Positions 2,080 through 59,652 of a stretch of DNA of 64,000 nucleotides are shown here, piece after piece (position 1 is the first letter of the stretch; each line of letters starts with the position of its first letter). The position numbers and the translations under genes are program-made. Origin of the DNA: an uncultured Gammaproteobacteria bacterium (GTDB taxonomy: Bacteria; Patescibacteriota; Patescibacteriia; Magasanikbacterales; GWA2-37-8); NCBI GenBank assembly GCA_964511375.1, contig CAZEEW010000002.1, positions 36,157 to 100,156 of the forward strand, written 5' to 3'. The notes beneath the pieces are model-generated. The model was not told where the DNA came from, did not search any database, and worked only from the letters and a program-made list of their open reading frames with translations.

Positions 2080-4104
2080 ATGCAAGATTTCACACACGAA
2101 CTTAACCAGGAACAACTAGCCGTCGTTTTACAAGGCGACGGTCCTTGTTTGGTGTTAGCTGGAGCCGGTAGTGGGAAAACTCGGGTTATTACTTACCGCG
2201 TAGCGTATTTGCTTGCCAATGGTACAAGACCAGAAGAAATTCTTTTGGTAACTTTTACCAATAAAGCCGCTGGTGAGATGCTTTCTCGCGTTCAGAAAAT
2301 CACCGGCCATACTGAGCACTTGCCTTGGGCCGGTACTTTCCACCATGTAGCAAATAAAATCTTGCGTCAGTATGCGCCTCTGGTTGGTTATAAAAACAAT
2401 TTTACAATTTTAGACACTGATGACAGCGAGGCACTCCTTAAACTTTGTATTAAAGAATATAAGGATGAAAAGATGGGGAAAAGATTCCCGTCAGCGAAAG
2501 TTTTGAAAGACATTTTCAGTTATGCGAGGAATGCTGAAACTACTGTTGATGACGTGATCGATCGTCGCCATCCAGATTGGTATATTTATGCCGAAAAGAT
2601 CAAGGATATTTGGAGCGCCTATGAACGACGCAAAAAAGAGGCTAATGCCATGGATTTTGATGATCTCCTCTTTAATCTTCTCTTACTTTTAAACCAAGAA
2701 AAAGTTATTGCCAAATTCGCTGATCAATTTAGATATGTTTTAGTCGACGAATACCAGGACACTAATCGATTGCAGGCTTCGATCATCAGTAAATTAGCCA
2801 TAAAACATAAAAATCTTTTGGTCGTGGGAGACGATGCTCAAAGCATCTATTCTTTTCGAGCGGCTGATGTGCAAAATATTTTAGGTTTTAGTAAGGTTTA
2901 CCCAGACGCTAGGGTGTTTAAACTGGAAACCAATTACCGTTCTCATCAAGAAATTTTAAATTTAGCCAATGACGTTATCGCGAATAATTTTAAGCAGCTA
3001 AAGAAAAATCTTCGTACCGCCTTTGAACAAAAGACTAGTTTAGAAAAACCCGCTCTTCATCCCCAAATAGATGAAGCGGACGAAGCCGAGTTTGTAGTCA
3101 GAGAAATTAAAAAGCTAAAAGATAAGGGGGTAAGGCCAGAAGAAATTGCCGTGCTGTTTCGGGCGGCTGGTCATGCCCAGCGTTTAGAAATGGAGTTAGT
3201 AAAAGCCAATATCCCTTATGATTTTCGTGGTGGCCTCAGATTTTTTGAGCGGGCTCATGTTAAAGATGTCTTGTCGTATTTAAGGCTTTTAACCAATCTG
3301 TCTGATACAGCCGCTTGGATGCGAGTGCTTTTACACGAAGAAGGAATTGGCCCAACTGGTGCAACCAAGATTGCGAGTGAAGTAAAAAGATTGGTTGATG
3401 CTCGAGAAATTCTGGGGTTAGATTTGGTTGGGGTATCTGAAAAAGCGAAAGTTGGTTGGAATAACTTTGTAAATATTTTCCGCACCCTTATTAATACTGG
3501 CGCCAAACCCAGTGAATTAATTTCTGCTCTTATTGATTCGCCTTATCGCGATTACCTAGAGACCGAGTTTATTGACGCCGATGAACGAATTGAGGATTTG
3601 GAAGAAATGGCTGGCTTTGCCAGTCAATATGGTACGGTCGAGGATTTTCTAGCTGAGGCAACTTTGCAGGAAAGTTTTATTTTGCAAAAGGATCGTACGA
3701 GTAGCCCGAAGGACAAAGTAATTCTTTCCACCATCCATCAGGCTAAAGGTTTGGAGTGGGAAGCGGTATTTGTCATTAACCTAACCAACGGTGCTTTCCC
3801 TAATGAACGAGCTCTTAAAGAAGACGGTGGTCTAGAAGAAGAGCGTCGTCTGTTTTACGTTGCGGTTACACGTGCAAAAAAACATTTGTTCCTTACTTAC
3901 CCCATGGAACAAAAAGGCTGGGGTGGTCTGGGTGGCCCGAGCCTATTCTTAGATGAAATTGACCGAGATCTTATCGATGATCACTCTTTGCTAGGTGGAA
4001 GTAACTATACCGTGCTAAATGACGACGACGTTACCTACGAGCCAGAGGATCGCCCTTTAAGAATTAAACCCGGCAGTTTCTTACGTGACGTTGACGACCT
4101 CTAG
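2080..4104 (+). CDS. uvrD: ATP-dependent DNA helicase, UvrD/PcrA family
   Basis: Walker A AGAGSGKT, DEYQDTN, helicase motif VGDDAQSIYSFR, C-terminal TRAKK motif. Confidence 0.88.
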   Translation: MQDFTHELNQEQLAVVLQGDGPCLVLAGAGSGKTRVITYRVAYLLANGTRPEEILLVTFTNKAAGEMLSRVQKITGHTEHLPWAGTFHHVANKILRQYAPLVGYKNNFTILDTDDSEALLKLCIKEYKDEKMGKRFPSAKVLKDIFSYARNAETTVDDVIDRRHPDWYIYAEKIKDIWSAYERRKKEANAMDFDDLLFNLLLLLNQEKVIAKFADQFRYVLVDEYQDTNRLQASIISKLAIKHKNLLVVGDDAQSIYSFRAADVQNILGFSKVYPDARVFKLETNYRSHQEILNLANDVIANNFKQLKKNLRTAFEQKTSLEKPALHPQIDEADEAEFVVREIKKLKDKGVRPEEIAVLFRAAGHAQRLEMELVKANIPYDFRGGLRFFERAHVKDVLSYLRLLTNLSDTAAWMRVLLHEEGIGPTGATKIASEVKRLVDAREILGLDLVGVSEKAKVGWNNFVNIFRTLINTGAKPSELISALIDSPYRDYLETEFIDADERIEDLEEMAGFASQYGTVEDFLAEATLQESFILQKDRTSSPKDKVILSTIHQAKGLEWEAVFVINLTNGAFPNERALKEDGGLEEERRLFYVAVTRAKKHLFLTYPMEQKGWGGLGGPSLFLDEIDRDLIDDHSLLGGSNYTVLNDDDVTYEPEDRPLRIKPGSFLRDVDDL

Positions 4105-5507: not shown

Positions 5508-7137
5508 AATTCTCGTTAACAGTATTTAATAACGAATATACTTTCTGTTCCCCCATACCTTTAAGATGCAAAGTCCTTTCTTCATACTGGAATTTCTCCA
5601 TTAAGAAGTTTTTTAACTCCCGACCCAAGAGTATTTCGTTTTTTTCGGCATTCTGACACAACCGGGCGGCGTAGTTTACAGTTTCGCCTAAGAAATCCCA
5701 GATCCGTTCATGCTCGGGTCCCACTTCCCCGGAAATAAATTCACCGTATTCTAAACCTACTCGCAGTTGCCAGCCCATCTGGTTAACTAGAGATACTAAT
5801 TTCTGCGCCGCCTCGAGCGCATTTACACACAGAGCCGGGTAATCCTCGTCATCTTTGTACCCACCAAAGACAACCATAATTCCATCGCCTAGATATTTGT
5901 AAACCCAGCCACCGCGTGACTTAACCACACTGTTAGACAGATCAAAGAAACGATTTAAGTCATTTAACATTTCAGTAATGTTGGCGGCCTCATGTACACG
6001 ACCCGAAAAATTGACTAGGTCAGCAAACAAAACTACACCACGATTACGACTCGGTGGCAATTTTTTTGTCGTCATGAGATTAACCAGATCTTCTGGCAAG
6101 TGTGAAGCAAGAATTTGGCTTAGTTGGTTTTTTAATTTTTCAACCTGTCGTTTTTCGTCAGTGATAATCTTGTTTCGCTCTTTAATGGTTTCTTCTAATT
6201 CCTGCGCGTAACTTTGAAAGTAACTAATGCGCTCTTCCAGGTCTTTAAAAGAAACATTAGTTTTTGCAAAAGGATGGGCCAAATTTTTTAGACGCTGTGT
6301 AAAAGGTAAATGCTCCCAACTAATTTTAATAATAAAATACGGCACGTTATATATTTGCCCGGGAATAAGTAGAGGATAGGTTTTATACCAGAGTTCTTTG
6401 GTAATAAGCACACCTTTAGTGGCAAATGGACTTTCGACCGGTTTGGTTTTGCCAAGGCATAGTGAGCCGAGAGAAGTTTCTTCGTTTACCAATTCGACGA
6501 CCTCACCGTAGACCGTATCTTCAATGTACAGTTTATCGTTTCTAAGTTCAGCAAAGATTTGGAATTGGTTACGAAGGAGTTTTACCACATCATATTGCAA
6601 GATTACCTCCTCAACTCTAGCCGGAGGTAAATTCCAGATCTTTGGTAAGCTGGAAAAAACACCTTTCACAAGTGGGCCAGAGATAAAGTCTTCTTCAATG
6701 TCTATACCGCCTCGGAAGCGTACGCGCAGGTAAGCCATGTTCTGGCCGCAAGAAATTACCTCCATGTACTTGGTTCGGTTGAAAAACTGGTTGTATTCAG
6801 GAATTTTTTTAATAACAAAACTGGGATCGGCGAAAGTCGAACCGATTAGCCTCTTCAAAATCTCGACAATGCCAAGCCCCCCTTCCTCAGTGGCCAAAAG
6901 CCCAATCTGGTAAAAGATGTTTGGGTCGTTGTCGATTAAATGCTGAACCCGACTGCAAAGTTTTAAGAAAGTAGGAAGCGAAATCCAATGATCAGGGTTT
7001 TTTAAATAGTCGGCAGGGTAGCCTAAATTATCTAAAATGTCATTTTCAGATAATCCTTTTTTGCGACAATATGTTAGTACAAGACCAACATTACGGTTGC
7101 AAACCAAAAGCTCCTCCTTTTCGTAGGATTTCTCCAT
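5497..7137 (-). CDS. Class III adenylate/guanylate cyclase domain protein with unknown N-terminal domain
   Basis: C-terminal cyclase homology domain: VVLFADLVNFSG … KYLGDGIMVVFGG … NYAARL. Confidence 0.7.
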   Translation of the reverse strand: MEKSYEKEELLVCNRNVGLVLTYCRKKGLSENDILDNLGYPADYLKNPDHWISLPTFLKLCSRVQHLIDNDPNIFYQIGLLATEEGGLGIVEILKRLIGSTFADPSFVIKKIPEYNQFFNRTKYMEVISCGQNMAYLRVRFRGGIDIEEDFISGPLVKGVFSSLPKIWNLPPARVEEVILQYDVVKLLRNQFQIFAELRNDKLYIEDTVYGEVVELVNEETSLGSLCLGKTKPVESPFATKGVLITKELWYKTYPLLIPGQIYNVPYFIIKISWEHLPFTQRLKNLAHPFAKTNVSFKDLEERISYFQSYAQELEETIKERNKIITDEKRQVEKLKNQLSQILASHLPEDLVNLMTTKKLPPSRNRGVVLFADLVNFSGRVHEAANITEMLNDLNRFFDLSNSVVKSRGGWVYKYLGDGIMVVFGGYKDDEDYPALCVNALEAAQKLVSLVNQMGWQLRVGLEYGEFISGEVGPEHERIWDFLGETVNYAARLCQNAEKNEILLGRELKNFLMEKFQYEERTLHLKGMGEQKVYSLLNTVNENYEN

Positions 7138-7242: not shown

Positions 7243-8055
7243 ATGTTAAATTATCATTTATATATGAAATACATTGCAAGATTGGGGTTAATAATAGGTG
7301 TAGTGTTATTGCTCGGTGCTTCTTGTGTTCCACAAGGGAATCAAGTACCAAGAACGAATACTCCTGTAAACAATAATGTAGCAAGCACAACAGACTCAAA
7401 TTCTGTCAATTCTGAAGTGCGTAACTCTGCTCCAACTGTTACGGGTTTACCCAAAGCGACTACAACTAGACCAGTAGTTAAACCCGTTACAACTTCCACT
7501 AATCCCTTGCCCTGCAATTCAAATGCTCAGTGTGTGTCTGGTAAGTTGTGTGTTAATAGCGAGTGCGTTCCAGCGGAAACGGTTCTACCAAAAGATCCAG
7601 TAACTGGTGAATTGCTCTGCAACAACAATGCCCAGTGTATTCCTGGGAAGCTTTGTGTGAACCAACACTGTGTACCAGCTGAGACCGCGCTCCCCACCAA
7701 TACCACCACCGGACAATTGCTTTGTAGTAATGATGCCCAATGTGTCCACGGTAAGGTTTGTGTTAATGGGAATTGTGTGGCTTCTTCTACAACTTCAAAA
7801 AGCTTGCCATCAGTTACTAATTGCTCATCAGATAGCCAGTGTAAAACCGGCGAAGCTTGTTTCCAGGGACGATGTACTACTGTGCCAGCAACCTGTAAGT
7901 ACCATACGGAATGTTTAAGCGATGATTATGTTTGTAGTAACGGGACCTGTGTTTGGCCAGGCTCAAGTGGTCATACTTGTCAGAATTCTTCCGGTGAAAG
8001 ATGGCATTGTCTGAATACCCAGAAGTGTGGAGTCAAAGAATTTGAGTGTATATAA
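7243..8055 (+). CDS. Secreted/lipoprotein-like cysteine-rich repeat protein
   Basis: N-terminal signal/lipobox-like LLGASC; S/T/N-rich linker; 3-4 tandem ~35-aa repeats CxxxAQCxxGKxCVNxxCV; alternative start at M8 (7264). Confidence 0.65.
   Translation: MLNYHLYMKYIARLGLIIGVVLLLGASCVPQGNQVPRTNTPVNNNVASTTDSNSVNSEVRNSAPTVTGLPKATTTRPVVKPVTTSTNPLPCNSNAQCVSGKLCVNSECVPAETVLPKDPVTGELLCNNNAQCIPGKLCVNQHCVPAETALPTNTTTGQLLCSNDAQCVHGKVCVNGNCVASSTTSKSLPSVTNCSSDSQCKTGEACFQGRCTTVPATCKYHTECLSDDYVCSNGTCVWPGSSGHTCQNSSGERWHCLNTQKCGVKEFECI
7510..7810 (+). repeat. In-frame degenerate tandem repeats (~105 bp x3) encoding the Cys-rich modules
   Basis: tgcaa(t/c)…aatgc(t/c)cagtgt…ggtaag(t/c)t(t/g)tgtgt(t/g)aa repeated at ~7510, ~7615, ~7720. 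Confidence 0.7.
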
Positions 8056-8068
8056 TTTATCGTAAAAT

Positions 8069-8105
8069 AAACACACCACCAGCTAAACTGGTGGTGTGTT
8101 ATATA
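8069..8105. terminator. Hairpin acacaccaccag/ctggtggtgtgt after Cys-rich gene; start of GC-rich islet 1
   Basis: 12-bp perfect stem, short loop. Confidence 0.5.
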
Positions 8106-8217
8106 CTAAATTCCTGTTCACGCGTATCTCCTTGTTATTCCCCCAAAACTTTAGGAAAATAACGGGCGGCGCGAACGAGGAACTTCGAGGTGGAGAATGC
8201 CACCCGTTGGCGATCGG

Positions 8218-8478
8218 TCAGTAGGTGTAACCTAGCTGCCGACGCCGTTCAGCTTCCGCGCGACGCTCGCGCTCCGCCGGTGCGAGCTTTTCGCACCGCG
8301 GGAGGAGGTTGCAGTCGAAGCAGGTCGACTGGACCTGCCCACCCATGGCGCGGGTGACGCGCTCGACGAAGTCGTGGCACGGGCTGTTCTTCAGTCCGCC
8401 GGCCCTCTTCCTCTCTTGGCCGGCCTTCCTCGTGGCTTCCCGGACTCTCTCGCGAGCCCGCCGCTGTTTCGCTCCCAT
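8218..8478 (-). CDS. GC-rich islet 1: small Arg/Lys-rich protein with Cys cluster (putative zinc-ribbon), 86 aa from ATG (TTG-extended ORF to 8529)
   Basis: ~65% GC segment 8150-8545 in a ~40% GC genome; GGAG 5 nt upstream of ATG; C-x17-C-x2-C-x5-C. Confidence 0.45.
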   Translation of the reverse strand: MGAKQRRARERVREATRKAGQERKRAGGLKNSPCHDFVERVTRAMGGQVQSTCFDCNLLPRCEKLAPAERERRAEAERRRQLGYTY

Positions 8479-8578
8479 GGCTTCTCCATGCACCCAGTAA
8501 ACCGGGGTGCCTCGGTGGACAATATACAACCACTATTTTATCTTGTTGTCAATTGTTTGTTTGCTGGGCTAACTAGGT

Positions 8579-18564: not shown

Positions 18565-18741
18565 ATAGTTTATTAAATAACCAGTTAATCATATTACTGT
18601 AAAGACAGAAAAAAATCAACAATTTTTTCATTAAAAAGTCAAATTTATGGTCCACTAGCGTTGACTTATTGTACACCTGGGTTACTGTACTAAAATGGTA
18701 TGACTTCGTAGTCCCAGCGCAAGCTGGGGGAGGAGTACAAC

Positions 18742-19656
18742 ATGTGGTGGGTTTTCGTGGCTGCCGTTTCGGCTGCTGTCGGTCAGCCTCCTGACGAGTG
18801 TTGGCAACCGGCCCGAGCCGCGCTGGAATCAGTCGGCGCTGTCTGGACCGGCACGCAGCCAGACGACACCCGTGTCGGCTGCCGTGAGGTGGTCGACGGA
18901 ATGTGGGGATCCTGGGAGTACACTGAGGAGAAGCTGGCCCGCTCAGCCGAAAGAGACGGTTGTCGTGGAGCCAGAGTGCTCCATAGGAGCTATGCTGCTG
19001 GACCCGCCGGGTGCAGTGTCATCTGTGTGCGCCTCAAGTGTTACGCCGAGGATGTTGACCTGGCGCCGGAGATGGAGACCGGCATCGACGAAGTCACGCT
19101 CCTCGCTCTCCTCAGGAAATCGGAACCTGAGGAGCAGCTTCCTGAGGAAGACGACTACGCATCTCTGGAGGCTGCTTCGGAAGAAGCGGTCCACCCAGAC
19201 GAGGAGGAGCTTGTTCCTCCAGACCCTCCGTCTTCGGAGGATCCAGCTCGGCTCGCCGGCGACATGACTGGGCTGGCGGTTCTCCTCGAGAGACAGTCCG
19301 GGTCGTCCGAGACTGAGATGCGCTTTCCTCGTCGGAACGCGAAGCTGGCTCAGCCGGTGTATGAGCCGGAGCCTATCGCTGACTCGGTCGTGGCCGAGGC
19401 GAATCCTCAGCCAATTGCGATACTCGAGCAGGCTCCCTCAGTGCCGGAGTCCCCGCTGCCGGCTGCTTCCCCCGAACTTCGTGCGTTCCAGGTGGAGATT
19501 GGGGGTATGATCGACGAATTTCGCCGCTCGCGTGAGTCTCTCAGGGAGAAGCGGCGGGAGATGCGGGAACGTTCCCGCGCCATTCGCGATGACTGGCGGC
19601 GCAAGCGTGACGCTTTGCGTTTCCAGACTCGCCAACTCGGGGCAGCGCGTCCTTGA
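18742..19656 (+). CDS. GC-rich islet 2: 304-aa Pro/Glu/Arg-rich hypothetical protein
   Basis: ~63% GC block 18716-19735; GGAGG 8 nt upstream of ATG while native genes lack SD; hairpins after stop; no recognised domain. Confidence 0.4.
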   Translation: MWWVFVAAVSAAVGQPPDECWQPARAALESVGAVWTGTQPDDTRVGCREVVDGMWGSWEYTEEKLARSAERDGCRGARVLHRSYAAGPAGCSVICVRLKCYAEDVDLAPEMETGIDEVTLLALLRKSEPEEQLPEEDDYASLEAASEEAVHPDEEELVPPDPPSSEDPARLAGDMTGLAVLLERQSGSSETEMRFPRRNAKLAQPVYEPEPIADSVVAEANPQPIAILEQAPSVPESPLPAASPELRAFQVEIGGMIDEFRRSRESLREKRREMRERSRAIRDDWRRKRDALRFQTRQLGAARP

Positions 19657-19825
19657 AGGGGCAGCTGTCCTTCGCCCCTCGATCTGAGGTATCGGGTCGA
19701 GGGCTGTGTCACGAGCGTCAAATGTTTTGGCTCTGGTGAAACCGTATTCATACACAGTTAATACACACAATTTTCGTTGACGAGACGATATATTTTGTTA
19801 TAATGATGAGGTAATTATTGAATTT

Positions 19826-22224: not shown

Positions 22225-22412
22225 TTTGGCACACCAATTTATCTTTATCTCGCGGTAAATAAGATTTTCTTCTCTCTGGGTAATTCAGAGAGGAAAAAAA
22301 CATTTAGACGAGCAAAAGATAAGAAAGGGTTTTGACAATAGTTAAACGACAATTAAAGCCAATCTTAGAAAAGCCATATTTTATGGCACTTCGGTATATG
22401 CCGGAAAAGAAA

Positions 22413-22467
22413 GGCTAGAAGCCCGGATTAGAAAGTAATATTTTTAGTCAGGGCTTCTAGTTTTTTG
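22413..22467 (+). terminator. Long stem-loop (ggctagaagccc … gggcttctag) + T6, 40 bp upstream of rplC: terminator/attenuator or 3' end of a small RNA
   Basis: 10-12 bp stem, 26-nt loop, followed by tttttt. Confidence 0.5.
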
Positions 22468-22509
22468 TTAAGACCCTCTAGGTCGGGGGTCCGCTAACAC
22501 ATTATATAT

Positions 22510-32694: not shown

Positions 32695-32735
32695 AAAAAC
32701 CCAGTACTATATAGTGCTGGGTTTTATTGTTTCGG
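32695..32735 (+). terminator. Terminator after secY (aaaaacccagtact-atat-agtgctgggttttattgtt); near-duplicate after asnS
   Basis: Stem + T-run; same frame aaaacccag…ctgggttttattgt as 37478-37512. Confidence 0.6.
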
Positions 32736-32741
32736 TTTATA

Positions 32742-32797
32742 CTTCTCGACTCTCCAGAAAAGTCTATCTTAAACTTCTCTGGAGTCCAGTCGAGAAG
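32742..32797. repeat. Imperfect ~20-bp-arm inverted repeat (cttctcgactctccaga … tctggagtccagtcgagaag) at edge of GC-rich islet 3
   Basis: Seen directly; no T-run, so not an obvious terminator. Confidence 0.5.
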
Positions 32798-32834
32798 CGC
32801 GGGGTGAAGGCGCGACGCGTCTGTCCTCCGCCCC

Positions 32835-33125
32835 TTAGGTCAAGAATGCCTCGAGCAGGGCTCTGACGATCGTTCGTCCGAGCTGGTTCTGCAGGGTCGG
32901 CATTGCCGAGCCCGTCATCCCGGCTAGGAAGAAAATCGCCGCAACCGCACCGAGCGCTACCCCGGTAAGGGGAGGGTGCGGAGGGTTCTTGAGTCCGTCG
33001 TTAATCGCTGCCGCAGTTGCGACAGCAAGCGTCAGTGCTCCTAGTACGGTCCAGATCATATTCTTTCCTCCTCTTGTTTCCGTTGCGAAACAGCCAACTT
33101 TATCACAAACTCCGCCCATTGTCAA
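32835..33125 (-). CDS. GC-rich islet 3: small two-TM membrane protein (74 aa from ATG at 33059 with AGGAGG SD; longer 96-aa ORF to 33125)
   Basis: ~62% GC block between secY and adk; strong SD; two hydrophobic helices with G/A-rich faces. Confidence 0.45.
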   Translation of the reverse strand: MTMGGVCDKVGCFATETRGGKNMIWTVLGALTLAVATAAAINDGLKNPPHPPLTGVALGAVAAIFFLAGMTGSAMPTLQNQLGRTIVRALLEAFLT

Positions 33126-35858: not shown

Positions 35859-35880
35859 CCCCACGACCGTGGTCGTGGGG
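35859..35880. terminator. Perfect GC hairpin ccccacgacc-gt-ggtcgtgggg after recO; edge of GC-rich islet 4
   Basis: 10-bp perfect stem; no T-run. Confidence 0.45.
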
Positions 35881-35906
35881 GCTGTGGGCCTTGCGCTTGG
35901 ACGGGT

Positions 35907-36041
35907 TTAACCACCACAAGCTGCTCGCAGGGCCAGGACAATAAATCCGACGATGATCAGGGCGCCAATCGCCCTAAATATCCCGCCGAAGATGAGGCAG
36001 ATCAGGCCGAGCGCAAACCCGGCCAAAAACCAACTTAGCAT
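35907..36041 (-). CDS. GC-rich islet 4: 44-aa hydrophobic single/double-TM peptide (MLSWFLAGFALGLICLIFGGIFRAIGALIIVGFIVLALRAACGG); below the ORF-track size cutoff
   Basis: GGAGG 5 nt upstream of ATG; ~62% GC; translated by hand. Confidence 0.4.
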   Translation of the reverse strand: MLSWFLAGFALGLICLIFGGIFRAIGALIIVGFIVLALRAACGG

Positions 36042-37446: not shown

Positions 37447-37477
37447 CGAGAAAAGGAGCATTAAAGTTCAAGAAACA

Positions 37478-37512
37478 AAAACCCAGCGCTAATTGCACTG
37501 GGTTTTATTGTG
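37478..37512 (+). terminator. Terminator after asnS (aaaacccagcgc-taatt-gcactgggttttattgt)
   Basis: Near-duplicate of secY terminator. Confidence 0.6.
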
Positions 37513-37525
37513 TTCCTTGATCTTA

Positions 37526-37583
37526 CGCTTCGCAGTTGATCTGAAATAACAATTGTTATTATCTCAGACCGACACTGCGAAGC
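37526..37583. repeat. Inverted repeat cgcttcgcagt … actgcgaagc enclosing a perfect 16-bp palindrome AATAACAATTGTTATT (37545-37560)
   Basis: Seen directly; operator-like symmetric site at the edge of GC-rich islet 5. Confidence 0.6.
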
Positions 37584-37612
37584 ATCGGACGCGCACACGC
37601 GCATGTTGGGGA

Positions 37613-38002
37613 TCAGAATCGGAGGGGGGTCGATGCCAGCTTGTCCCGTAAGTCCTTGAGGACCTGGTTTCGGTAGGGGAAGTACTCTGACCCGGTGCTG
37701 AGCTCGAGCCACATGCACCGCTCGCCGTGCTGTAGGTAGACTTCTACCGCGTCGTTGGAACAGCTTGGTGCACACCAGGGATCGATCTTGTACATCTCTG
37801 GGATGCGATCGAAGCTGTTCTCCAGCGCGTAGAAGACACCCTTGTCACAGTAAGACTTGACGACGAGCAGACGCCCTTCAGTTTGCGAGCGCAGAACTTG
37901 GTTGCTCTCGCGGTACAGCCGTGGACAAAACCACCCGAACAAGAACCAGATCACCGCGATCGTCGTCGCCGTCTTCATCGCCGCCGAGGTAAGCCTTTTC
38001 AT
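37613..38002 (-). CDS. GC-rich islet 5: 129-aa signal-anchored/secreted protein with 4+ Cys
   Basis: GGAG 7 nt upstream of ATG; N-terminal hydrophobic MKTATTIAVIWFLFGWF; ~60% GC. Confidence 0.45.
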   Translation of the reverse strand: MKRLTSAAMKTATTIAVIWFLFGWFCPRLYRESNQVLRSQTEGRLLVVKSYCDKGVFYALENSFDRIPEMYKIDPWCAPSCSNDAVEVYLQHGERCMWLELSTGSEYFPYRNQVLKDLRDKLASTPLRF

Positions 38003-38119
38003 CACTTAACTCCATGCGCCATCCAGGCGCTCTGTTGTCGAGGAACAAGTGATTATAGCAAAGAGAGAGAGAGTTGTCAAGATGGTCTAACAGAATTGTC
38101 TTTAATATTACCCAAAAAA

Positions 38120-38156
38120 TAACAAAACAAGCCTGGTTTCGAGGCTTGTTTTTTAT
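38120..38156. terminator. Bidirectional terminator (caagcct-ggtttcg-aggcttg) after metallophosphoesterase gene
   Basis: 7-bp stem with A-run upstream and T-run downstream. Confidence 0.65.
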
Positions 38157-39132: not shown

Positions 39133-39705
39133 TTAATCTTTGACTAGTTTAATCAATTTAATAAAAATGTCAGTATTTTTTGAAATACGAATATTATATC
39201 TAATTTTACCTTTTGTTTTGATTTTGTAAAGATGTGCTGGTATAGAAAGAGATTCTAACATTTTCATTACATCTCGAGCTAAGTTAGGTATCATAGACAC
39301 AAAATTTACCATTTTGTATCCTCTGTCGATATATATTGACCCGTCTGTTTGGAATAAACCACGTAAACATTCAATTACTGTTTGTTCCTTTTTCATAATC
39401 CAGGTTGGAACCGACACTCCTTGTTTTTCTTTTGATCCACCTAGGGTTTTCCAGCCTAATAAACTTTCCCATTTGTTAGAATAGCAGCTTATATCTTTGC
39501 AATTTCTTTTAATGTTAATTATGTTAACTTTATTCCTTGGCATAAATGATCTTAAGGAATCGGCTATTGTTCGGATTAAATTCGGGTACTTAAGATCACA
39601 GGAAATTCTAAGACGGACCGCCCTACGATTAGGGTTAGAAAGATTGCCGTCCCCAAGTGCAAGGCCGGTAATATACGCCAGAAGCTTTTCCTCCTTTTTA
39701 AGCAT
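39133..39705 (-). CDS. Free-standing double-motif LAGLIDADG homing endonuclease
   Basis: Two LAGLIDADG motifs: LAYITGLALGDGNL and LRGLFQTDGSI; 190 aa; starts 7 nt after tRNA-Leu 3' end. Confidence 0.8.
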   Translation of the reverse strand: MLKKEEKLLAYITGLALGDGNLSNPNRRAVRLRISCDLKYPNLIRTIADSLRSFMPRNKVNIINIKRNCKDISCYSNKWESLLGWKTLGGSKEKQGVSVPTWIMKKEQTVIECLRGLFQTDGSIYIDRGYKMVNFVSMIPNLARDVMKMLESLSIPAHLYKIKTKGKIRYNIRISKNTDIFIKLIKLVKD

Positions 39706-39711
39706 AAGTCG

Positions 39712-39793
39712 TGCCGATGGTGGGAATCGAACCCACAGGCCTTACGGCACACGATTTTGAGTCGTGCATGTTTACCAATTTCATCACATCGGC
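39712..39793 (-). tRNA. tRNA-Leu (anticodon CAA), type II with long variable arm
   Basis: Hand-folded: acceptor GCCGATG/CATCGGC, anticodon stem CACGA/TCGTG, loop CTCAAAA, variable hairpin GCC-GTAA-GGC, T-arm GTGGG-TTCGATT-CCCAC; CCA not encoded. Confidence 0.75.
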
Positions 39794-41512: not shown

Positions 41513-43011
41513 TGCTCTCGATTTGGTAAGATAATCTTTAGCCAGTTCTTAACCGCAGAATTCAAATTGTTTTTGATGTGGTTTCTAGCCACATGGGTCT
41601 TCACAAACTTTAACCAATTTGGACTTGGTCCTTTTCGGTTTTTGTCGACCATGATTTCAATCACATCGCCACTTTTCAAAGCCGTGTCCAAACTAACGAT
41701 TTGGTCATTAACTTTTGCTCCACCGCATTTATTACCAATGTCGGTATGAATGTGGTAGGCAAAATCAATTGGAGTTGCATTCTCGGGTAGGTCAATAACA
41801 TCTCCCCTGGGAGTAAAGACAAAGATACGATTCTGGAAAAAGTCGACTTTAATTTCTTCTAAATCCGAGAGATTGTTTAGCACCTCTTTTTGTAAACGCG
41901 CTAGTTCTTTAGCCCATTCAATATCTCTCGGTGCCATGCGGACTCCTTTTTCATCATAATGCCAATGGGCCGCGATACCATACTCGGCTTCGTTGTGCAT
42001 GTCTACGGTCCGAATTTGGAATTCCACCATTTTACCATCATCACAGAAAACCGTTGTGTGTAAAGATTGGTAGCCATTGGGTTTCGGTTGCGCTATGTAG
42101 TCCTTGATACGCCCTTTAATAGGCCGCCACAACTTATGGATTATACCTAGTGCCGCATAACAGTCACCGACATCTTGGACTAACACACGTAGAGCAAATA
42201 TATCGTAAATATTTTCCGTATCCCAGCCTTTTTTCATCAACTTTTGGTATAAGCTGTAAAGCTGCTTTTGTCTGCCCTGCACCTCGGCGGTCTTAAATCC
42301 CGCTTTATACAGCTCACCTTTAACTGTTTTCATTATTTTACTAATATATGCTTCTTGCCCAGTAACAATTCTTTCGCGAAGAGATTTTACTTTCTCAAAT
42401 TCTTTCGGATAAACATGCTTAAAGGATAAATCCTCGAGCATCCCCTTTATTTCATTCATGCCGAGACGGTTAGCAATTGGCGCATAGATTTCTAAACTCT
42501 CAAGGGCAATGCGGTAACGTTTTTTTTCCGGTAGCGCCTCAAGGGTGCTTAGATTATGGATACGATCGGCAAATTTAATAATCATGACCCGAACGTCTTC
42601 AGCCATGGCGACGAACATTTTGCGAAGGTTCTCGATATATCTTTCAACGCCACGGTATTTTAGTTTACCTAATTTGGTGATGCCTTTGATCAAAGAGGCA
42701 ATGTCTTCGCCAAAGTTTTTTTCAACGTCCTCGATCGTGACCGGCGTATCTTCCGGGACATCGTGTAGTATACCAGCGGTGACTAGATTAAGATCAAAAC
42801 GCATACCCGCTAAAATATATGCCGTCATTAAAGGGTGTTGGATATATGGTTCGCCAGATTTACGGGCTTGTCCAGCATGAGCCTTTTCGGCGTAATCATA
42901 AGCCAAACGAACTAATTCTATTTCTTTAGCCGTGTTGTATTTTTTGAGACTAGCGATGAGATCGTCGATAGTCACTGGCTTAGTTGTCGAGAGTAATGTT
43001 TCTAGGTCCAT
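41509..43011 (-). CDS. relA: RelA/SpoT-homolog (p)ppGpp synthetase/hydrolase (HD + synthetase + TGS), 500 aa
   Basis: HD motif ILHDVPEDT, synthetase domain motifs, C-terminal TGS-like region. Confidence 0.85.
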   Translation of the reverse strand: MDLETLLSTTKPVTIDDLIASLKKYNTAKEIELVRLAYDYAEKAHAGQARKSGEPYIQHPLMTAYILAGMRFDLNLVTAGILHDVPEDTPVTIEDVEKNFGEDIASLIKGITKLGKLKYRGVERYIENLRKMFVAMAEDVRVMIIKFADRIHNLSTLEALPEKKRYRIALESLEIYAPIANRLGMNEIKGMLEDLSFKHVYPKEFEKVKSLRERIVTGQEAYISKIMKTVKGELYKAGFKTAEVQGRQKQLYSLYQKLMKKGWDTENIYDIFALRVLVQDVGDCYAALGIIHKLWRPIKGRIKDYIAQPKPNGYQSLHTTVFCDDGKMVEFQIRTVDMHNEAEYGIAAHWHYDEKGVRMAPRDIEWAKELARLQKEVLNNLSDLEEIKVDFFQNRIFVFTPRGDVIDLPENATPIDFAYHIHTDIGNKCGGAKVNDQIVSLDTALKSGDVIEIMVDKNRKGPSPNWLKFVKTHVARNHIKNNLNSAVKNWLKIILPNREH

Positions 43012-43096
43012 ACATTGTTATTAAACCGCAAAATTCACCTTTTGGCAAGTACAAAAAAACGCTACTTTACAATTAAAGCAGCGTTTTTTGGTGTGT

Positions 43097-45319
43097 TTAT
43101 TCGGCCATTTTTGTAAAGTCGCATTCTTTACTGCTGCACTTTATTTGCCCTTTAGCAGCAAAGATTAAGAGAGAAGAACATTTTGGGCACTTTTCTCCGT
43201 TTGGTTTTTCCCAGAGAGCAAAATCGCAGTTTGGATATTGGTTACAGGCATAGAAAATTTTCCCGCGTTTACTTCGTTTCTCAATAATATCTCCTTTTTC
43301 ACACTTTGGACATTTAACATTGGTTTTTTTCTCAATACTTTTAATTGTCTTACATTCTGGATAATTAGAACAACTTAAGAAAGGTCCAAAGCGGCCAACT
43401 TTTTGCACCATTGGACTGCCACATTTTTCACATTTTTCGTCAGTTGGTACAGCGATGGGAGCCGCAGCGCTTCCCTCACCAGCTAATTGCTTGGTGCTTT
43501 TGCAATCTGGGTAGCCAGTGCAGGCCAAGAATTTTCCAAAGCGACCCATTTTAATGACCATGGGTTTACCACATTTATCGCAAGTCTCTTCTGTCGCAGT
43601 TTCGGTTAATTCTTTTTTGTTTAACTCTTGATCTTTAGCTAAAAGATTTTCTTTAAACGGCGTATAAAAACTTTTAATGATCGGTTGCCATTCCTTTTTC
43701 CCCTCAGCGATTTCGTCCAAGTTATTCTCCATCTCAGCAGTGAAGTTAAAATCCACAATATGCGGAAAATGTTCAACTAAAAGGTCGTTAACCACATAAG
43801 CTATTTCCGTTGGTTTTAAGCGCTTTTTTTCATCACGCTCGATATATCCACGATCTTCAATGGTCGCGATAGTTGGCGCATAGGTGGACGGGCGGCCAAT
43901 GCCGTACTCTTCAAGTGTTTTAACTAGTGTGGCATCAGAATAGCGGGCTGGTGGCTCAGTAAAATGCTGCTCTGGTTTCAATTCTAAGCAGTTAATTTTT
44001 TCGCCAATCGAAACAACTGGTAAAATATTCTCCTTGGCTTTATCGGGGTATAGTTTTAGGAAACCATCAAAAACAATTGTTTGACCAGTGGCGCGGAATG
44101 TATAGTCGCCACTTTTGATGTCAATATTTTTAGCCGACAATTCTGCAGCAGCCATCTGGGTCGCAAGGGCTCGTCGCCAGATTAAGTCATATAGCTTAAA
44201 CAGCTTTGGCTCGACAAATGGCTTGATTAATTCTGGGGAGCGGGAAGCGCTAGTAGGGCGGATTGCCTCATGGGCTTCTTGAGCATTTTTACTTTTCTTT
44301 TTATAAGAGCGAACTGATTCTAAGGCATACTTGTTTCCGAAACTTTTTGTAATCTCTGTCTTGGCTTCTTGGAGGAATTTATCTGACAAGTTTACCGAAT
44401 CTGTACGCATATAAGTGATTAAACCCACTGATCCTTCACTGCCTAATTCCACACCTTCGTAAAGTTGTTGGGCTAAACGCATGGTTTGTTTAGCTGAAAA
44501 ACCCAAGTGGTTGTTCGCCTCTTGTTGTAAAGAAGAAGTAGTAAAAGGGGGAGAAGGATTGCGTTTAACAGTTTTTTCCTCAAGATTGCTAACTTCGTAA
44601 TTAGCCCCAGTTAAGGATTTAATAATCTCATCTACTCCGTCTTTGTTTTTAAGATCTAATTTATCTAGTTTTTTGTCTTTGATCGCTTGTAACCTTGCGA
44701 TGATCTGTTCCTTAGAATCTAATTTTTCAAAAGTGGCCTCAAGCGACCAGTATTCGACCGGTTTGAAGTTTTGGATTTCTCTTTCCCGTTCTACAACCAG
44801 ACGGACAGATACGGATTGTACACGCCCAGCCGACAAACCCTTTGCGACCTTGCGCCAGAGAAAAGGGGAGAGCTCGTAACCAACTAAACGGTCTAGGACG
44901 CGACGAGCTTGTTGGGCGTCCACCAAGCGTAGGTTTAAGGCCCTTGGGTGCTCTAAAGCATCTTTAATAGCATGTTCAGTAATTTCATGAAAAACCATGC
45001 GCTCGGCTTTGTCTGGATTAATACCTAAAACATGGGCGAGGTGCCAGGAAATAGCCTCACCCTCACGGTCCTCATCAGTTGCGAATATGACACCGTCACT
45101 TTTTTGAGCAAGTTCTTTCAGCTTTTTTACTTGAGCGCTTTTATCTCGGGGAATAACATAGCTTGGTTCAAAAGTTTGCCCTTCAATGTCTACTCCCATT
45201 TTGCTTTTTGGTAGATCGCGGATATGGCCAAAAGAAGACTCGACTTTGAAGCCTTTTCCTAGGAATTTTGTAATTGTTTTTGCCTTTGTTGGGGACTCAA
45301 CAATGATTAATTTAGCCAT
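43097..45319 (-). CDS. topA: DNA topoisomerase I with multiple C-terminal zinc ribbons
   Basis: TOPRIM N-terminus, active-site region, four CxxC…CxxC zinc ribbons. Confidence 0.92.
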   Translation of the reverse strand: MAKLIIVESPTKAKTITKFLGKGFKVESSFGHIRDLPKSKMGVDIEGQTFEPSYVIPRDKSAQVKKLKELAQKSDGVIFATDEDREGEAISWHLAHVLGINPDKAERMVFHEITEHAIKDALEHPRALNLRLVDAQQARRVLDRLVGYELSPFLWRKVAKGLSAGRVQSVSVRLVVEREREIQNFKPVEYWSLEATFEKLDSKEQIIARLQAIKDKKLDKLDLKNKDGVDEIIKSLTGANYEVSNLEEKTVKRNPSPPFTTSSLQQEANNHLGFSAKQTMRLAQQLYEGVELGSEGSVGLITYMRTDSVNLSDKFLQEAKTEITKSFGNKYALESVRSYKKKSKNAQEAHEAIRPTSASRSPELIKPFVEPKLFKLYDLIWRRALATQMAAAELSAKNIDIKSGDYTFRATGQTIVFDGFLKLYPDKAKENILPVVSIGEKINCLELKPEQHFTEPPARYSDATLVKTLEEYGIGRPSTYAPTIATIEDRGYIERDEKKRLKPTEIAYVVNDLLVEHFPHIVDFNFTAEMENNLDEIAEGKKEWQPIIKSFYTPFKENLLAKDQELNKKELTETATEETCDKCGKPMVIKMGRFGKFLACTGYPDCKSTKQLAGEGSAAAPIAVPTDEKCEKCGSPMVQKVGRFGPFLSCSNYPECKTIKSIEKKTNVKCPKCEKGDIIEKRSKRGKIFYACNQYPNCDFALWEKPNGEKCPKCSSLLIFAAKGQIKCSSKECDFTKMAE

Positions 45320-54438: not shown

Positions 54439-54498
54439 TTGACCGTTTTGTAATTTTAATATATATTAAAGGCATTAGACCTAATTACAAGGAAATAT

Positions 54499-57096: not shown

Positions 57097-59652
57097 ATGA
57101 TTGAATTTGGCCCTAAACCGGAGGGGCTAAAGATAGAAGCAAAAGAGCAAGAAAGGGTTAATGATGTCGCTCGGGTTTTTTTAGTTACAACCAGAACCTC
57201 AAGAGAGTTAACGCCCGATTATATCGAAGATCTAGGTGGTTTATCCCAAGTATTTTTAACAACTGGTTTATGGCTGGAAAAAGGGGAGGGTAGCGTTAAT
57301 GAGGGGCAGGTGATGCCAGTCGGTGGTAACAGAAAACTGAGGAAAAACGGTGAACCCGCAGAATCACTAAGAGCAACCGCCAGCCGCGAAAGTCGAGAAG
57401 AAGCCAGGTTAAATGTGGAGGAAAGCAGCCTCAAGGAATTGGGAGACGTTAAATATGTCATTGACCATCCTACAAAAGGGAGGTTAAAAATTAAGAGTCA
57501 TTATTATTTGGGTCGAATAAGCCCTCACGACGAAGCGCGTCAGTTGTATGAAGATGAAGACAAGATTCGCAATTTTTTACGGTTAGATGCACTCGGCCAT
57601 GCCACGTTGATGGGAGGGGTACGAGTAGACCAGAGGACAGAAGATGAATTCAAAGGGTGGGTCCGTGATCCCAGATTATTAGACAGTCTACAAAGTCCAT
57701 CCTTACCTAGTCGACCAAATTTATTGCCGACAAAAAATAAAGTGGCCCAAGCAGTTTTTGTAAACCCGGGTGAGGACAAGACCTTGACCACTGAAGAGAA
57801 AAAGAAGGCTGAAATAGAGTATGACGAGTCAGTACGCACCTTACAGATGAACTTAATGGTCGAGATGCAAAAGATCGAGGCAGATACAAAGCTTGCTATT
57901 TTAAGGGCTTTTTTAAGAAATTACCCACCAGAATCTGAGGAGTTAGAATACCAAAAGTTTGCACAGTTATTAAATAATAATGATGAAGAAGTATTAACCC
58001 CGGGCATCGTTGTTGGCGATCTTTGGCCTGGGATGATTAGATACCTTGAAAAAAGATATTCTAAGAGCGTGATACGCAAAAAATTTTACGAAGAGTTGGA
58101 CAAACAAAATTTAAATTTTGATGTTGAAGCAGCGGAGTCGCCGGCGGAAATTGTAATTAGATCAGTGTACACTCTCCTTGAATCTCATAATTTTTCGGGC
58201 GAATATTTTACGAGCAGTCGCCCAGAAATGAAAAAATTTGTTGAATCTATTATGAGGTTTATTGACGATGTAATTAAAAAATACGGATTAACTAAGCCGA
58301 AAAGACTAGGTCTGGCTGAGAAAATGGGCTACGTCAAAGATCTATTGGAGGATGTGGCGGGCGAGCCTCGAAAATGCGAAAAAGTTGAACAGATGTTTGC
58401 TCGCGATTTGGATTTACCCGAGAGACAGCTGGTTGAATTTAGAAACTCAGTTAATAATTTCCTAGTAATAATGGCGAATAAGATTATTGAGCGTTATCAG
58501 AGGCTACATAAAGGTAAAGCTGTCGCGGTCGACCCCGATCCTTTAAACGATATTAAAGACGGTGCGTTAGTTGATGTGATAAATGTTGCTTTGCCCGATT
58601 CCAGCAAGGGTGTGCGGCGAGATTGGAAAGTGCGAGAAAAGGTAGGAGAAGAGGAAGACGCAAAAAATAATTTACGACGAAAAGTTTTTGAGGCTAGACG
58701 TCTAATCGCTCTTATGTACTCCTTAAATCGTAGCTTTGATTTTTATAATCGTACAATTCTTAATGGTCGCGCACCAGTTGAGCGTATTTTTACCAGTTTA
58801 ACCAGTGGTGCAGAACAACGAAGAAAAAGAATAAAAATTGCGCAAGGTAAAAAAGGTGGATATATTGAAAATGTTGAGATTTTAAGTAGCGATAAACAAA
58901 GGGAGGAAAATAGCAGCCCAGTTGTTCTGCGTCAGGCCAGAGGTGTTTTGGCTGAATTATCCCCGGGCTTAAAAATGGAGGTGGATTCCCATGTCAAAAC
59001 TTTGCCATCATTTTATCGCAAAATACTACAATTCCGATTTGATGACGACCCCTCTACAAAAGTGCAAGACATATACCGTCGCGCGCTTACTCTTGAAAAC
59101 AGTAGCTTAAAACGGGTCGTAATTTCTGAAAGAATGGGTAAATATATTGCCGACGGTAAATTTACCATGGTTGAACCAAGATCAAAATTACAGAAAACTG
59201 TCTCGGCGGACGAACCAGACTACGAAGATGCCTTAAACATTGCGGAAGCGATTTTAATCGAAGGAAATCAGCACCCTGGGCAGCAGGTAAGAGTCATCGA
59301 TTATCGTCCTTGTGCGGCTGAAGGTGCAGGTTATGAAAGTCCATTTGGATCAGGAAGAATTCGTTTCAGTAAGTTTACGATTGAGCATACGGACGAAAAA
59401 GGTAATAAACGCTACGAGGAAGTCCAAATATATTTCCCAACTAGCGACGGCAAAAGTGCCTTTTATTGGAAAGAATTAAAAAAACGCGATGATGAATTCT
59501 TTTTCTTCGATCGCATTTTAAAAAGTCCTTACGCTCATTCTTTGGCAGATTTACTATTCCCGCCACAAATCTATGGAGAACTAGTGCATTTAGTGCACTA
59601 TAAGGATAAACAACAAGAGCTAGAAGATTTGATGAGTTTAAAAATTGGATAG
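57097..59652 (+). CDS. Large (851 aa) hypothetical protein with degenerate Nudix-like N-terminal domain
   Basis: N-term VARVFLVTT…GLWLEKGEG…GGNRKLRKNGEPAESLRATASRESREEARL (E-x7-REUxEE remnant of Nudix box); remaining ~700 aa unmatched. Confidence 0.5.
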   Translation: MIEFGPKPEGLKIEAKEQERVNDVARVFLVTTRTSRELTPDYIEDLGGLSQVFLTTGLWLEKGEGSVNEGQVMPVGGNRKLRKNGEPAESLRATASRESREEARLNVEESSLKELGDVKYVIDHPTKGRLKIKSHYYLGRISPHDEARQLYEDEDKIRNFLRLDALGHATLMGGVRVDQRTEDEFKGWVRDPRLLDSLQSPSLPSRPNLLPTKNKVAQAVFVNPGEDKTLTTEEKKKAEIEYDESVRTLQMNLMVEMQKIEADTKLAILRAFLRNYPPESEELEYQKFAQLLNNNDEEVLTPGIVVGDLWPGMIRYLEKRYSKSVIRKKFYEELDKQNLNFDVEAAESPAEIVIRSVYTLLESHNFSGEYFTSSRPEMKKFVESIMRFIDDVIKKYGLTKPKRLGLAEKMGYVKDLLEDVAGEPRKCEKVEQMFARDLDLPERQLVEFRNSVNNFLVIMANKIIERYQRLHKGKAVAVDPDPLNDIKDGALVDVINVALPDSSKGVRRDWKVREKVGEEEDAKNNLRRKVFEARRLIALMYSLNRSFDFYNRTILNGRAPVERIFTSLTSGAEQRRKRIKIAQGKKGGYIENVEILSSDKQREENSSPVVLRQARGVLAELSPGLKMEVDSHVKTLPSFYRKILQFRFDDDPSTKVQDIYRRALTLENSSLKRVVISERMGKYIADGKFTMVEPRSKLQKTVSADEPDYEDALNIAEAILIEGNQHPGQQVRVIDYRPCAAEGAGYESPFGSGRIRFSKFTIEHTDEKGNKRYEEVQIYFPTSDGKSAFYWKELKKRDDEFFFFDRILKSPYAHSLADLLFPPQIYGELVHLVHYKDKQQELEDLMSLKIG

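Follow-up and report, generated by a model that had tools for sequence, protein, structure and literature searches.

A perfect 16-bp palindrome (AATAACAATTGTTATT) at positions 37545–37560 of the 64,000-nucleotide stretch analysed here (the window) is most likely not an operator. Our analysis suggests that it makes up the apex of an RNA stem-loop of 61 nt within the 3' untranslated region (3'UTR) of a minus-strand gene cassette, a reading to which we give a probability of about 0.6. The cassette is inserted between asnS and a gene for a metallophosphoesterase and encodes a 129-residue orphan protein with four conserved cysteines. The initial annotation of this DNA had seen in the palindrome a site for a dimeric repressor or a recombinase. 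The loss of the dyad in related genomes, the retention of the helix, the greater stability of the sense-strand fold and the position of the element together argue against an operator and for a 3'UTR RNA element. From promoter to terminator, the unit covers about 37471–38080 on the minus strand. Its parts, together with the flank on the phosphoesterase side, are the following:

37478–37512, both strands: bidirectional terminator of "type A" (AAAACCCAG..CTGGGTTTT), ending asnS (plus) and the cassette (minus)
37513–37524, minus strand: conserved spacer from the terminator to the long hairpin (plus strand GTTCCTTGATCT)
37525–37585, minus strand: two-tier 3'UTR stem-loop of 61 nt, from RNA folding and a covariance model
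37590–37602, minus strand: short GC hairpin (GCGCGUGUGCGC) directly past the stop codon; L009, a related lineage, has the same gcgcacacgcgc
37613–38002, minus strand: open reading frame (ORF) of the 129-residue orphan, ATG at 38002
38010–38030, minus strand: 5' untranslated region (5'UTR), with a GGAG ribosome-binding site at 38010–38013 and, directly before it, the stem-loop GCGCC-UGGAU-GGCGC at 38016–38030
38052–38080, minus strand: cassette promoter TTGACA-17-TATAAT, a 12/12 match with TG before the −10 box, from a promoter scan
38124–38152, both strands: bidirectional terminator of the phosphoesterase gene, part of the slot-side flank and outside the moved unit

The 3' stem-loop and its pairing

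An outer stem of 12 bp and an inner stem of 15 bp, the latter with three G.U pairs, are separated by a 3-nt bulge; a 3-nt loop closes the stem-loop, and the palindrome lies at its apex. The larger inverted repeat that had been noted around the palindrome is present, its arms GCTTCGCAGT (37527–37536) and ACTGCGAAGC (37574–37583) being complementary at 10/10 positions. The element is placed between the stop codon of the 129-residue gene and the bidirectional terminator that this gene has in common with asnS. The minus-strand RNA of 37470–37612 folded at −69.8 kcal/mol, compared with −33.3 ± 3.5 kcal/mol for shuffled sequences (z = −10.4), and in the same fold a terminator hairpin with its U-run follows about 10 nt beyond the long stem-loop. 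The orthologous hairpin of the relative L001 gave z = −8.0. Since the hairpin comes after the asnS terminator on the plus strand and before it on the minus strand, only the cassette transcript should contain it.

Adk-based scans of genome and metagenome collections yielded four useful relatives, which makes the covariation sample small. L001 to L004 are four assemblies of one species and L009 is a third lineage; a homologue was found in both. At the position of the palindrome, L001, L004 and L009 read AATAACAAGTAAATTATTAT: the dyad is lost and the flanking stem is kept. The hairpin region of the relatives' cassettes reads ...TCTGAAATAACAAGTAAATTATTATCTCAGA... and retains the helix. Between the window and L001/L009 the loop changes from CAA to UUUAC, breaking the DNA palindrome, and an inner stem of 13 bp including two G.U pairs is identical. 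In the outer stem, the pair G35–C81 is replaced by U–A through changes on both sides. One-sided changes (A–U to G.U and U.G to C–G) leave pairing intact only in the cassette sense. The register of the conserved pairs is offset from the DNA dyad and relies on G.U pairs.

The cassette sense was more stable than the antisense in 5/5 hairpins, by 1.9–12.8 kcal/mol. Sense and antisense RNA folded at −35.9 and −26.0 kcal/mol in the window, and at −34.7/−21.9, −36.9/−27.9, −35.5/−33.6 and −31.8/−21.0 kcal/mol in the other four, with 2–4 G.U pairs per hairpin on the sense strand versus 0–2 on the antisense strand. RNAalifold, run on four hairpins, reported five pairs changed on both sides. The compensatory and wobble changes (one double and three wobble between the window and L001) and the strand-specific structure expected of a conserved structured RNA were thus both found, in a small sample.

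The operator reading has in its favour the perfect 16-bp dyad itself. Such a palindrome is, however, expected about 1.4 times per window by chance: the window holds four, dinucleotide-shuffled sequences contained a mean of 1.38 and 70% of the shuffles had at least one, so that a lone 16-bp palindrome is not beyond chance. Its half-sites are lost in the orthologues (L001, L004 and L009) and the stem pairing is kept, in a register that differs from that of the dyad. The 16-mer is also located in the 3'UTR, past the stop codon, and follows the asnS terminator; the nearest promoter, that of the cassette, is about 490 bp away. There is no adjacent regulator gene, the neighbours being asnS, the metallophosphoesterase gene and a LAGLIDADG ORF. 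A scan of the window proteins found neither a regulator nor a recombinase, the remaining ORFs, a ribosomal-protein and translation block, being identified by reading only. We therefore give the operator almost no credence; by itself the palindrome is ordinary, and it would be wrong to take it for an operator. The other perfect 16-bp palindromes of the window are at 19563–19578 (GCGGGAACGTTCCCGC, within the ORF of islet 2, described below), 54455–54470 (TTTAATATATATTAAA) and 58105–58120 (CAAAATTTAAATTTTG).

A covariance model built from four hairpins gave matches of 60–74 bits and no further copies in the 171 kb of window and relatives, and Rfam returned no match at either gathering or permissive thresholds. 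The outer arms of the hairpins of islet 3, islet 5 (the cassette studied here), L001 and L005 are related (GCUUCUCG.. or GCUUCGCAG..). This relatedness at two window loci and in relatives, in an inverted repeat of about 60 bp, would fit a selfish miniature inverted-repeat element similar to the repetitive extragenic palindromic (REP) sequences, lying beside the islets by chance. REP, enterobacterial repetitive intergenic consensus (ERIC) and Correia elements are often found in 3' regions and fold in the mRNA, which speaks for the same idea. Yet the outer-arm motif has two copies in 64 kb, both at cassette tails, with no more detected by the covariance model; no target-site duplication is evident, and the position and sequence of the hairpin are kept with the cassette across genomes whose synonymous sites are saturated. 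A selfish repeat thus appears very improbable. The motif AATAACAA was considered as a shared tail signal and dismissed: it occurs in three cassette tails, but its 9 copies versus 5.9 expected are not an enrichment. A sliding fold of the whole window placed long AT-rich hairpins at islets 1, 3 and 5, and the sole other one is an unusually long two-tier terminator of about 25 bp (AAAGGCTAGAAGCCC..GGGCTTCTAGTTTTTT), 22401–22470 on the plus strand.

We also considered that the long stem-loop might be mainly a transcription barrier, backing the bidirectional terminator between the cassette promoter and asnS. The hairpin is always accompanied by a bidirectional terminator 8–12 nt away, in convergent arrangement near essential genes (secY, asnS and the gene upstream of rpsL), and the cassette promoter is a perfect consensus. 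In the intrinsic-terminator test, however, no U-run followed the long stem (cassette sense GUAAGAUCAAGGAAC, plus strand ATCGGACGCG), and by the usual definition the hairpin is therefore no intrinsic terminator. Moreover, 12 pairs and a U-run are already provided by the terminator next to it: on the minus strand, the terminator scan found 12 pairs (6 G–C), a 5-nt loop and the tail TGTTTCTT; on the plus strand the stem is followed by TTTTATTGT, and an A-run and a T-run flank the two sides, such that 37478–37512 qualifies as an intrinsic terminator on both strands. A role chiefly as a barrier is, in our judgement, quite unlikely; it overlaps with the RNA reading and does not exclude it.

If the palindrome is the apex of a 3'UTR RNA element, the stem-loop would act on the cassette mRNA, as a 3'-end stabiliser that blocks 3' exonucleases, as an RNase III-type processing site, or as both. 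Stem-loop and terminator together may also insulate asnS from antisense transcription driven by the strong convergent cassette promoter. Some points weigh against this interpretation. As DNA, the two strands of the window hairpin have nearly the same folding energy (−16.2 and −16.4 kcal/mol), which makes a DNA-level role possible. That the window and L001 have a fully identical inner stem hints that, besides stability, specific recognition of the sequence by a factor plays a part; such identity across saturated divergence suggests a partner that reads sequence. The covariation comes from four to five distinct hairpins (two orthologue pairs and one more), too few for a formal test, and the comparison covers 64 kb from this genome and short segments from its relatives. 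Finally, that the hairpin is transcribed and affects the mRNA is a prediction from sequence.

The orphan gene and its promoter

As the initial annotation had described, the GC-rich islet 5 contains a minus-strand ORF of 129 codons. The predicted protein has a basic N-terminus, a hydrophobic helix (anchor or signal) and a domain of about 100 residues with the four conserved Cys; a fifth Cys lies in the anchor. It is about 60% identical between the window and L001. The ratio of nonsynonymous to synonymous substitution rates (dN/dS) of the ORF was about 0.23 versus both L001 and L009, indicating a real gene under purifying selection. Among 5.8 billion proteins, a single homologous cluster was found (P0002, 58% identical), and a profile search of 1.8 billion representative proteins made no credible addition to it. 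A 679-residue repeat protein (P0003, E = 3e-5 in HMMER) was judged a spurious homologue. No cargo protein of any of these cassettes matched Pfam, PHROGs, PADLOC, NCBIfam or the PDB, except for one sub-threshold match of the L011 cargo to an acidic double-disulfide repeat. The AlphaFold2 model of the 4-Cys protein, made from a two-sequence alignment, was unusable (predicted local distance difference test score, pLDDT, 43.7; predicted template modelling score, pTM, 0.23).

The G+C content at third codon positions (GC3) of the ORF is 0.77 in the window and 0.77–0.85 with L001 and L009 included, compared with 0.31–0.46 for secY, adk, asnS and recO. Over the islet ORFs GC3 is 0.62–0.79, and up to 0.85 in L001, and it has been kept although synonymous sites have diverged almost to saturation between the window and L001. 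This persistence of high GC3 is a point for specialist attention. An assembly chimera was rejected as the origin of the GC islets, the same cassette being present in independent ENA, JGI and NCBI assemblies. Targets of diversity-generating retroelements carry a hairpin after the variable region; such a target was likewise rejected here, as the C-terminus of the protein is conserved and no reverse transcriptase was found among the window proteins scanned.

The promoter, 5'UTR, hairpin and spacer of the cassette are about 85–90% identical between the window and L001. This is despite saturation of synonymous sites in secY, adk, asnS and recO (proportion of synonymous differences, pS, 0.72–0.75), which indicates that the noncoding framework is under strong constraint. 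The 12-nt spacer between terminator and hairpin is nearly identical in L001 and L009 (GTTCCTTATTTT) despite the same saturation in the neighbouring genes. In the 5'UTR hairpin, which was also flagged by the scan, the stem is conserved and the loop altered in L001 and L009.

Within the promoter spacer (38058–38074) lies an (AG)6/(CT)6 tract, at 38062–38073. The −35 and −10 boxes are separated by 17 bp in the window, by 15 bp in L001–L004 and by 19 bp in L009, and the differences are whole AG units: (AG)5 in L001, (AG)6 in the window and (AG)7 in L009. A repeat tract inside the −35/−10 spacer with a varying number of units, the mark of a phase-variable promoter, is therefore present, and we propose that it may make the cassette promoter phase-variable. 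Phase-variable promoters with simple spacer repeats include the TA repeats of H. influenzae hifA/hifB and the poly-G tract of N. meningitidis porA (PMC3899988). As in those systems, the repeat lies inside the spacer and whole units set its length to 15, 17 or 19 bp, the 17-bp form giving the perfect consensus. In contrast to them, the cassette tract is short, with 5–7 units, and no length variation was seen within a species, all four assemblies of the L001 species having 15 bp; promoter switching thus stays hypothetical.

Insertion, cargo exchange and relocation

The window has 41.6% GC and carries a ribosomal-protein block from rpsL to secY, followed by adk, map, ruvX, recO and asnS; its proteins have their nearest named relatives in Candidatus Magasanikbacteria (Patescibacteria). 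Segmentation by G+C content gave five sharply bounded GC-rich islets:

8163–8520: islet 1
18707–19719: islet 2
32777–33054: islet 3
35859–36024: islet 4, the fourth listed
37563–38043: islet 5, with 58% GC versus 41.6% for the window

Four of the five are on the minus strand, opposing the adjacent housekeeping genes. Islets 1 and 3 belong to cassettes that, as with islet 5, end in a two-tier hairpin and then a bidirectional terminator:

32696–33125, minus strand: islet 3 cassette, in the secY–adk spacer, with a type-A terminator at 32696–32725, a two-tier hairpin at 32741–32798, a gene for a 74-residue membrane orphan at 32835–33059 and a promoter at 33097–33125
8070–8545, minus strand: islet 1 cassette, upstream of rpsL, with a type-B terminator at 8070–8100, a long hairpin at about 8108–8182 and a gene for an 86-residue basic, Cys-containing orphan at 8218–8478

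No homologue at all was found for the 74-residue orphan. The same hairpin-plus-terminator tail follows other cargo genes in the relatives L005 and L011.

Of the earlier proposal of a repeated insertion target or co-mobilised unit, which had been drawn from the likeness of two terminators, the co-mobilised unit gained support. The asnS terminator (37478–37512) and the secY terminator (32695–32735) are near-copies (blastn, 83% identity over 47 nt), and an antisense GC islet comes after both. The pattern AACCCAG-N(8–20)-CTGGGTT has two matches in 64 kb, these two terminators only, with 0 expected. Spacers in the outgroups are short:

asnS–phosphoesterase, L015 and L016: 33–41 bp, holding a single shared bidirectional terminator
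secY–adk, L013, L015 and L016: 109–145 bp
recO–asnS, L013, L015 and L016: 27–75 bp

The 33–41 bp of the first of these gaps indicate that the cassette unit is a clade-specific insertion. Its cargo differs between genomes. At secY–adk, each lineage of the window's clade has its own antisense, GC-rich gene: the window has that of the 74-residue membrane protein; L001, L004 and L009 have the 4-Cys cassette that the window carries beside asnS; and L005 has a 249-residue Cys-rich secreted protein. At asnS–phosphoesterase, the 4-Cys cassette of the window is replaced in L011 and L012 by a gene for a 221-residue secreted Cys-rich protein. The phosphoesterase-side flank is orthologous between the window and L011 (38075–38155), from TTGTCAAG to the phosphoesterase terminator, although the asnS-side terminators of the two differ. 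Type A (AAAACCCAG..CTGGGTTTT) ends asnS and secY in the window and secY in L005, and type B (AACACCNCC..GGTGGTGTTTTA) is found at secY in L001 and L009, at asnS in L011 and at islet 1 of the window. The terminator type thus follows the cassette and not the locus, in support of a co-mobilised unit.

No transposase, integrase or reverse transcriptase was detected among the window proteins scanned, and no target duplication was found. A 6-bp direct repeat TCAAGA (37468–37473 and 38077–38082) was discarded as a target duplication, its right copy being part of a −35 box common to other slots. In viral contigs neither the hairpin pattern nor the 129-residue protein was found, and hence nothing points to carriage by phages. 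Relocation of the cassette may proceed through recombination at the terminator and −35 ends that the units share, with no need for an element-encoded enzyme. A cTTGTCAAa-like sequence is already present in the empty secY–adk site of L015, and so half a promoter would already await any cargo gene inserted there. In the window, the adk −35 box (TTGTCA, 33119–33124, plus strand) is the reverse complement of that of the islet 3 cassette (TTGACA, 33125–33120, minus strand), within 33119–33125.

These exchanges raise the possibility that the hairpin is a single-strand DNA recombination site, similar to integron attC or to the subterminal hairpins of IS200/IS605 elements, used by a recombinase encoded elsewhere to insert, excise or swap cargo. 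Between genomes the cargo of a slot varies next to a constant hairpin outer stem (GCTTCTCG../..CGAGAAGC), terminator and promoter, the homology breaks directly at the 5' base of the hairpin, after GAGAAGCG, and the 4-Cys cassette has changed slot. The one-sided 3-nt bulge loosely resembles the unpaired bases of attC, and a fold is predicted for the hairpin as DNA as well (z about −5 to −6). On the other hand, attC core sites are absent: GTTCCTT is found in place of GTTRRRY, with pyrimidines for purines, there is no RYYYAAC, and the stem base reads GCTTCGC/GCGAAGC. The cassettes are single, dispersed over 30 kb and equipped with their own promoters, and so do not form an array. The relocated unit extends past the hairpin and includes the terminator, so that the hairpin is not the end of the unit; the strand-asymmetric wobble pairs fit RNA better than a DNA site; and, as stated above, the window proteins scanned include no enzyme of this kind. 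We consider a recombination site unlikely and retain the 3'UTR RNA element as the preferred reading of the hairpin.

Other observations concern the same spacers and their surroundings. Islet 2 (18707–19719), the largest, has 63% GC and a plus-strand gene for a 304-residue orphan that matches no family; from a hydrophobic N-terminus the protein runs through a Cys-containing domain and an acidic Pro-rich linker to a basic C-terminal helix, and two GC-rich hairpins come after the gene. The recO–asnS spacer contains GC-rich genes for hydrophobic peptides of 44–47 residues, all ending in ACGG and each with a GC hairpin behind it; the window has a single copy (35907–36041, minus strand), and L001 (2721–2858 and 3013–3156) and L005 (about 6590–7010) have two in tandem. 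Directly upstream of islet 1, a low-GC gene (7243–8055, plus strand) encodes a 270-residue secreted protein with about five Cys-rich repeats of the Dickkopf_N or DUF7107 kind. The LAGLIDADG ORF (39133–39705, minus strand) adjoins tRNA-Leu(CAA) (39711–39793, minus strand), between the phosphoesterase gene and parA. L011 has at its position a toxin–antitoxin pair of the nucleotidyltransferase/HepT type, which shows that the phosphoesterase–parA spacer is also variable. L011 further carries, in its topA–relA spacer, a GC-rich (61%) gene for a 345-residue orphan with its own TTGACA promoter (2567–3754); the spacer is 86 bp in the window (43011–43097). The L005 contig (CAZRZQ010000049.1) is titled "uncultured Gammaproteobacteria bacterium", but by SecY, by Adk (85% identical) and by gene order it agrees with this Patescibacteria clade; it is probably mis-binned.

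Comparison with known systems and meaning

The hairpin and the terminator are known kinds of element. Stabilising or processing stem-loops in 3'UTRs are found in REP-stabilised E. coli mRNAs, in the RNase III-processed Correia/nemis and ERIC hairpins and in lambda sib. The cassette stem-loop shares with them a long imperfect double-stranded helix that follows the stop codon and precedes or adjoins a terminator, in which pairing is conserved rather than sequence and bulges and G.U pairs are typical. It differs in not being high-copy within the 64 kb of the window and in being tied to a few GC-rich orphan-gene cassettes of one Magasanikbacteria clade; Rfam has no counterpart of it, and a role in processing or stabilisation is putative. 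As in bidirectional intrinsic terminators, 37478–37512 has a G+C stem with an A-run and a T-run between convergent ORFs, those of asnS and the cassette. Unlike them, it appears to travel with the cassette, types A and B spanning loci and genomes instead of being locus-specific.

With integron cassettes, the units have in common a modular single ORF followed by an imperfect hairpin, and unrelated cargo at the same position in related genomes. They differ in that they carry their own promoter and terminator and sit in the spacers of housekeeping genes, with no array, no attC core motifs and no integrase found in the window proteins scanned. Conserved flanks (secY/adk and asnS/phosphoesterase) around variable, strain-specific content recall replacement-type flexible genomic islets, whose genes are exchanged through homologous recombination; dprA is present in the window. 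The islets described here, however, hold one gene in 0.3–1.1 kb, their cargo reaches a GC3 of 0.85 in a 41% GC genome, and homology of the flanks is by itself no explanation for the move of one cassette from slot to slot.

The unusual part is that GC-rich orphan genes are packaged as swappable, relocatable promoter-to-terminator units in housekeeping spacers of a genome of the Candidate Phyla Radiation (CPR). No description of such islets was found in the literature searched. A reduced CPR genome of 41% GC carries single-gene units with a GC3 of about 0.8, each equipped with a consensus promoter, stem-loops at the 5' and 3' sides and a terminator, inside spacers that measure 30–140 bp in outgroups. 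As a tentative and rather speculative proposal, these units could represent an undescribed class of promoter-to-terminator mini-cassettes: GC-rich (GC3 0.6–0.85), fast-evolving secreted or membrane orphans, captured, exchanged and shifted among a few slots near essential genes through their 3' hairpin/terminator and −35 ends, integron-like with no linked integrase, and toggled by the promoter repeat. If this is true, the surface or secreted proteins, switched and exchanged in this way, would be candidate mediators of the episymbiotic lifestyle of Patescibacteria, and the cassettes would offer a tractable case of the entry and movement of orphan genes in minimal genomes.

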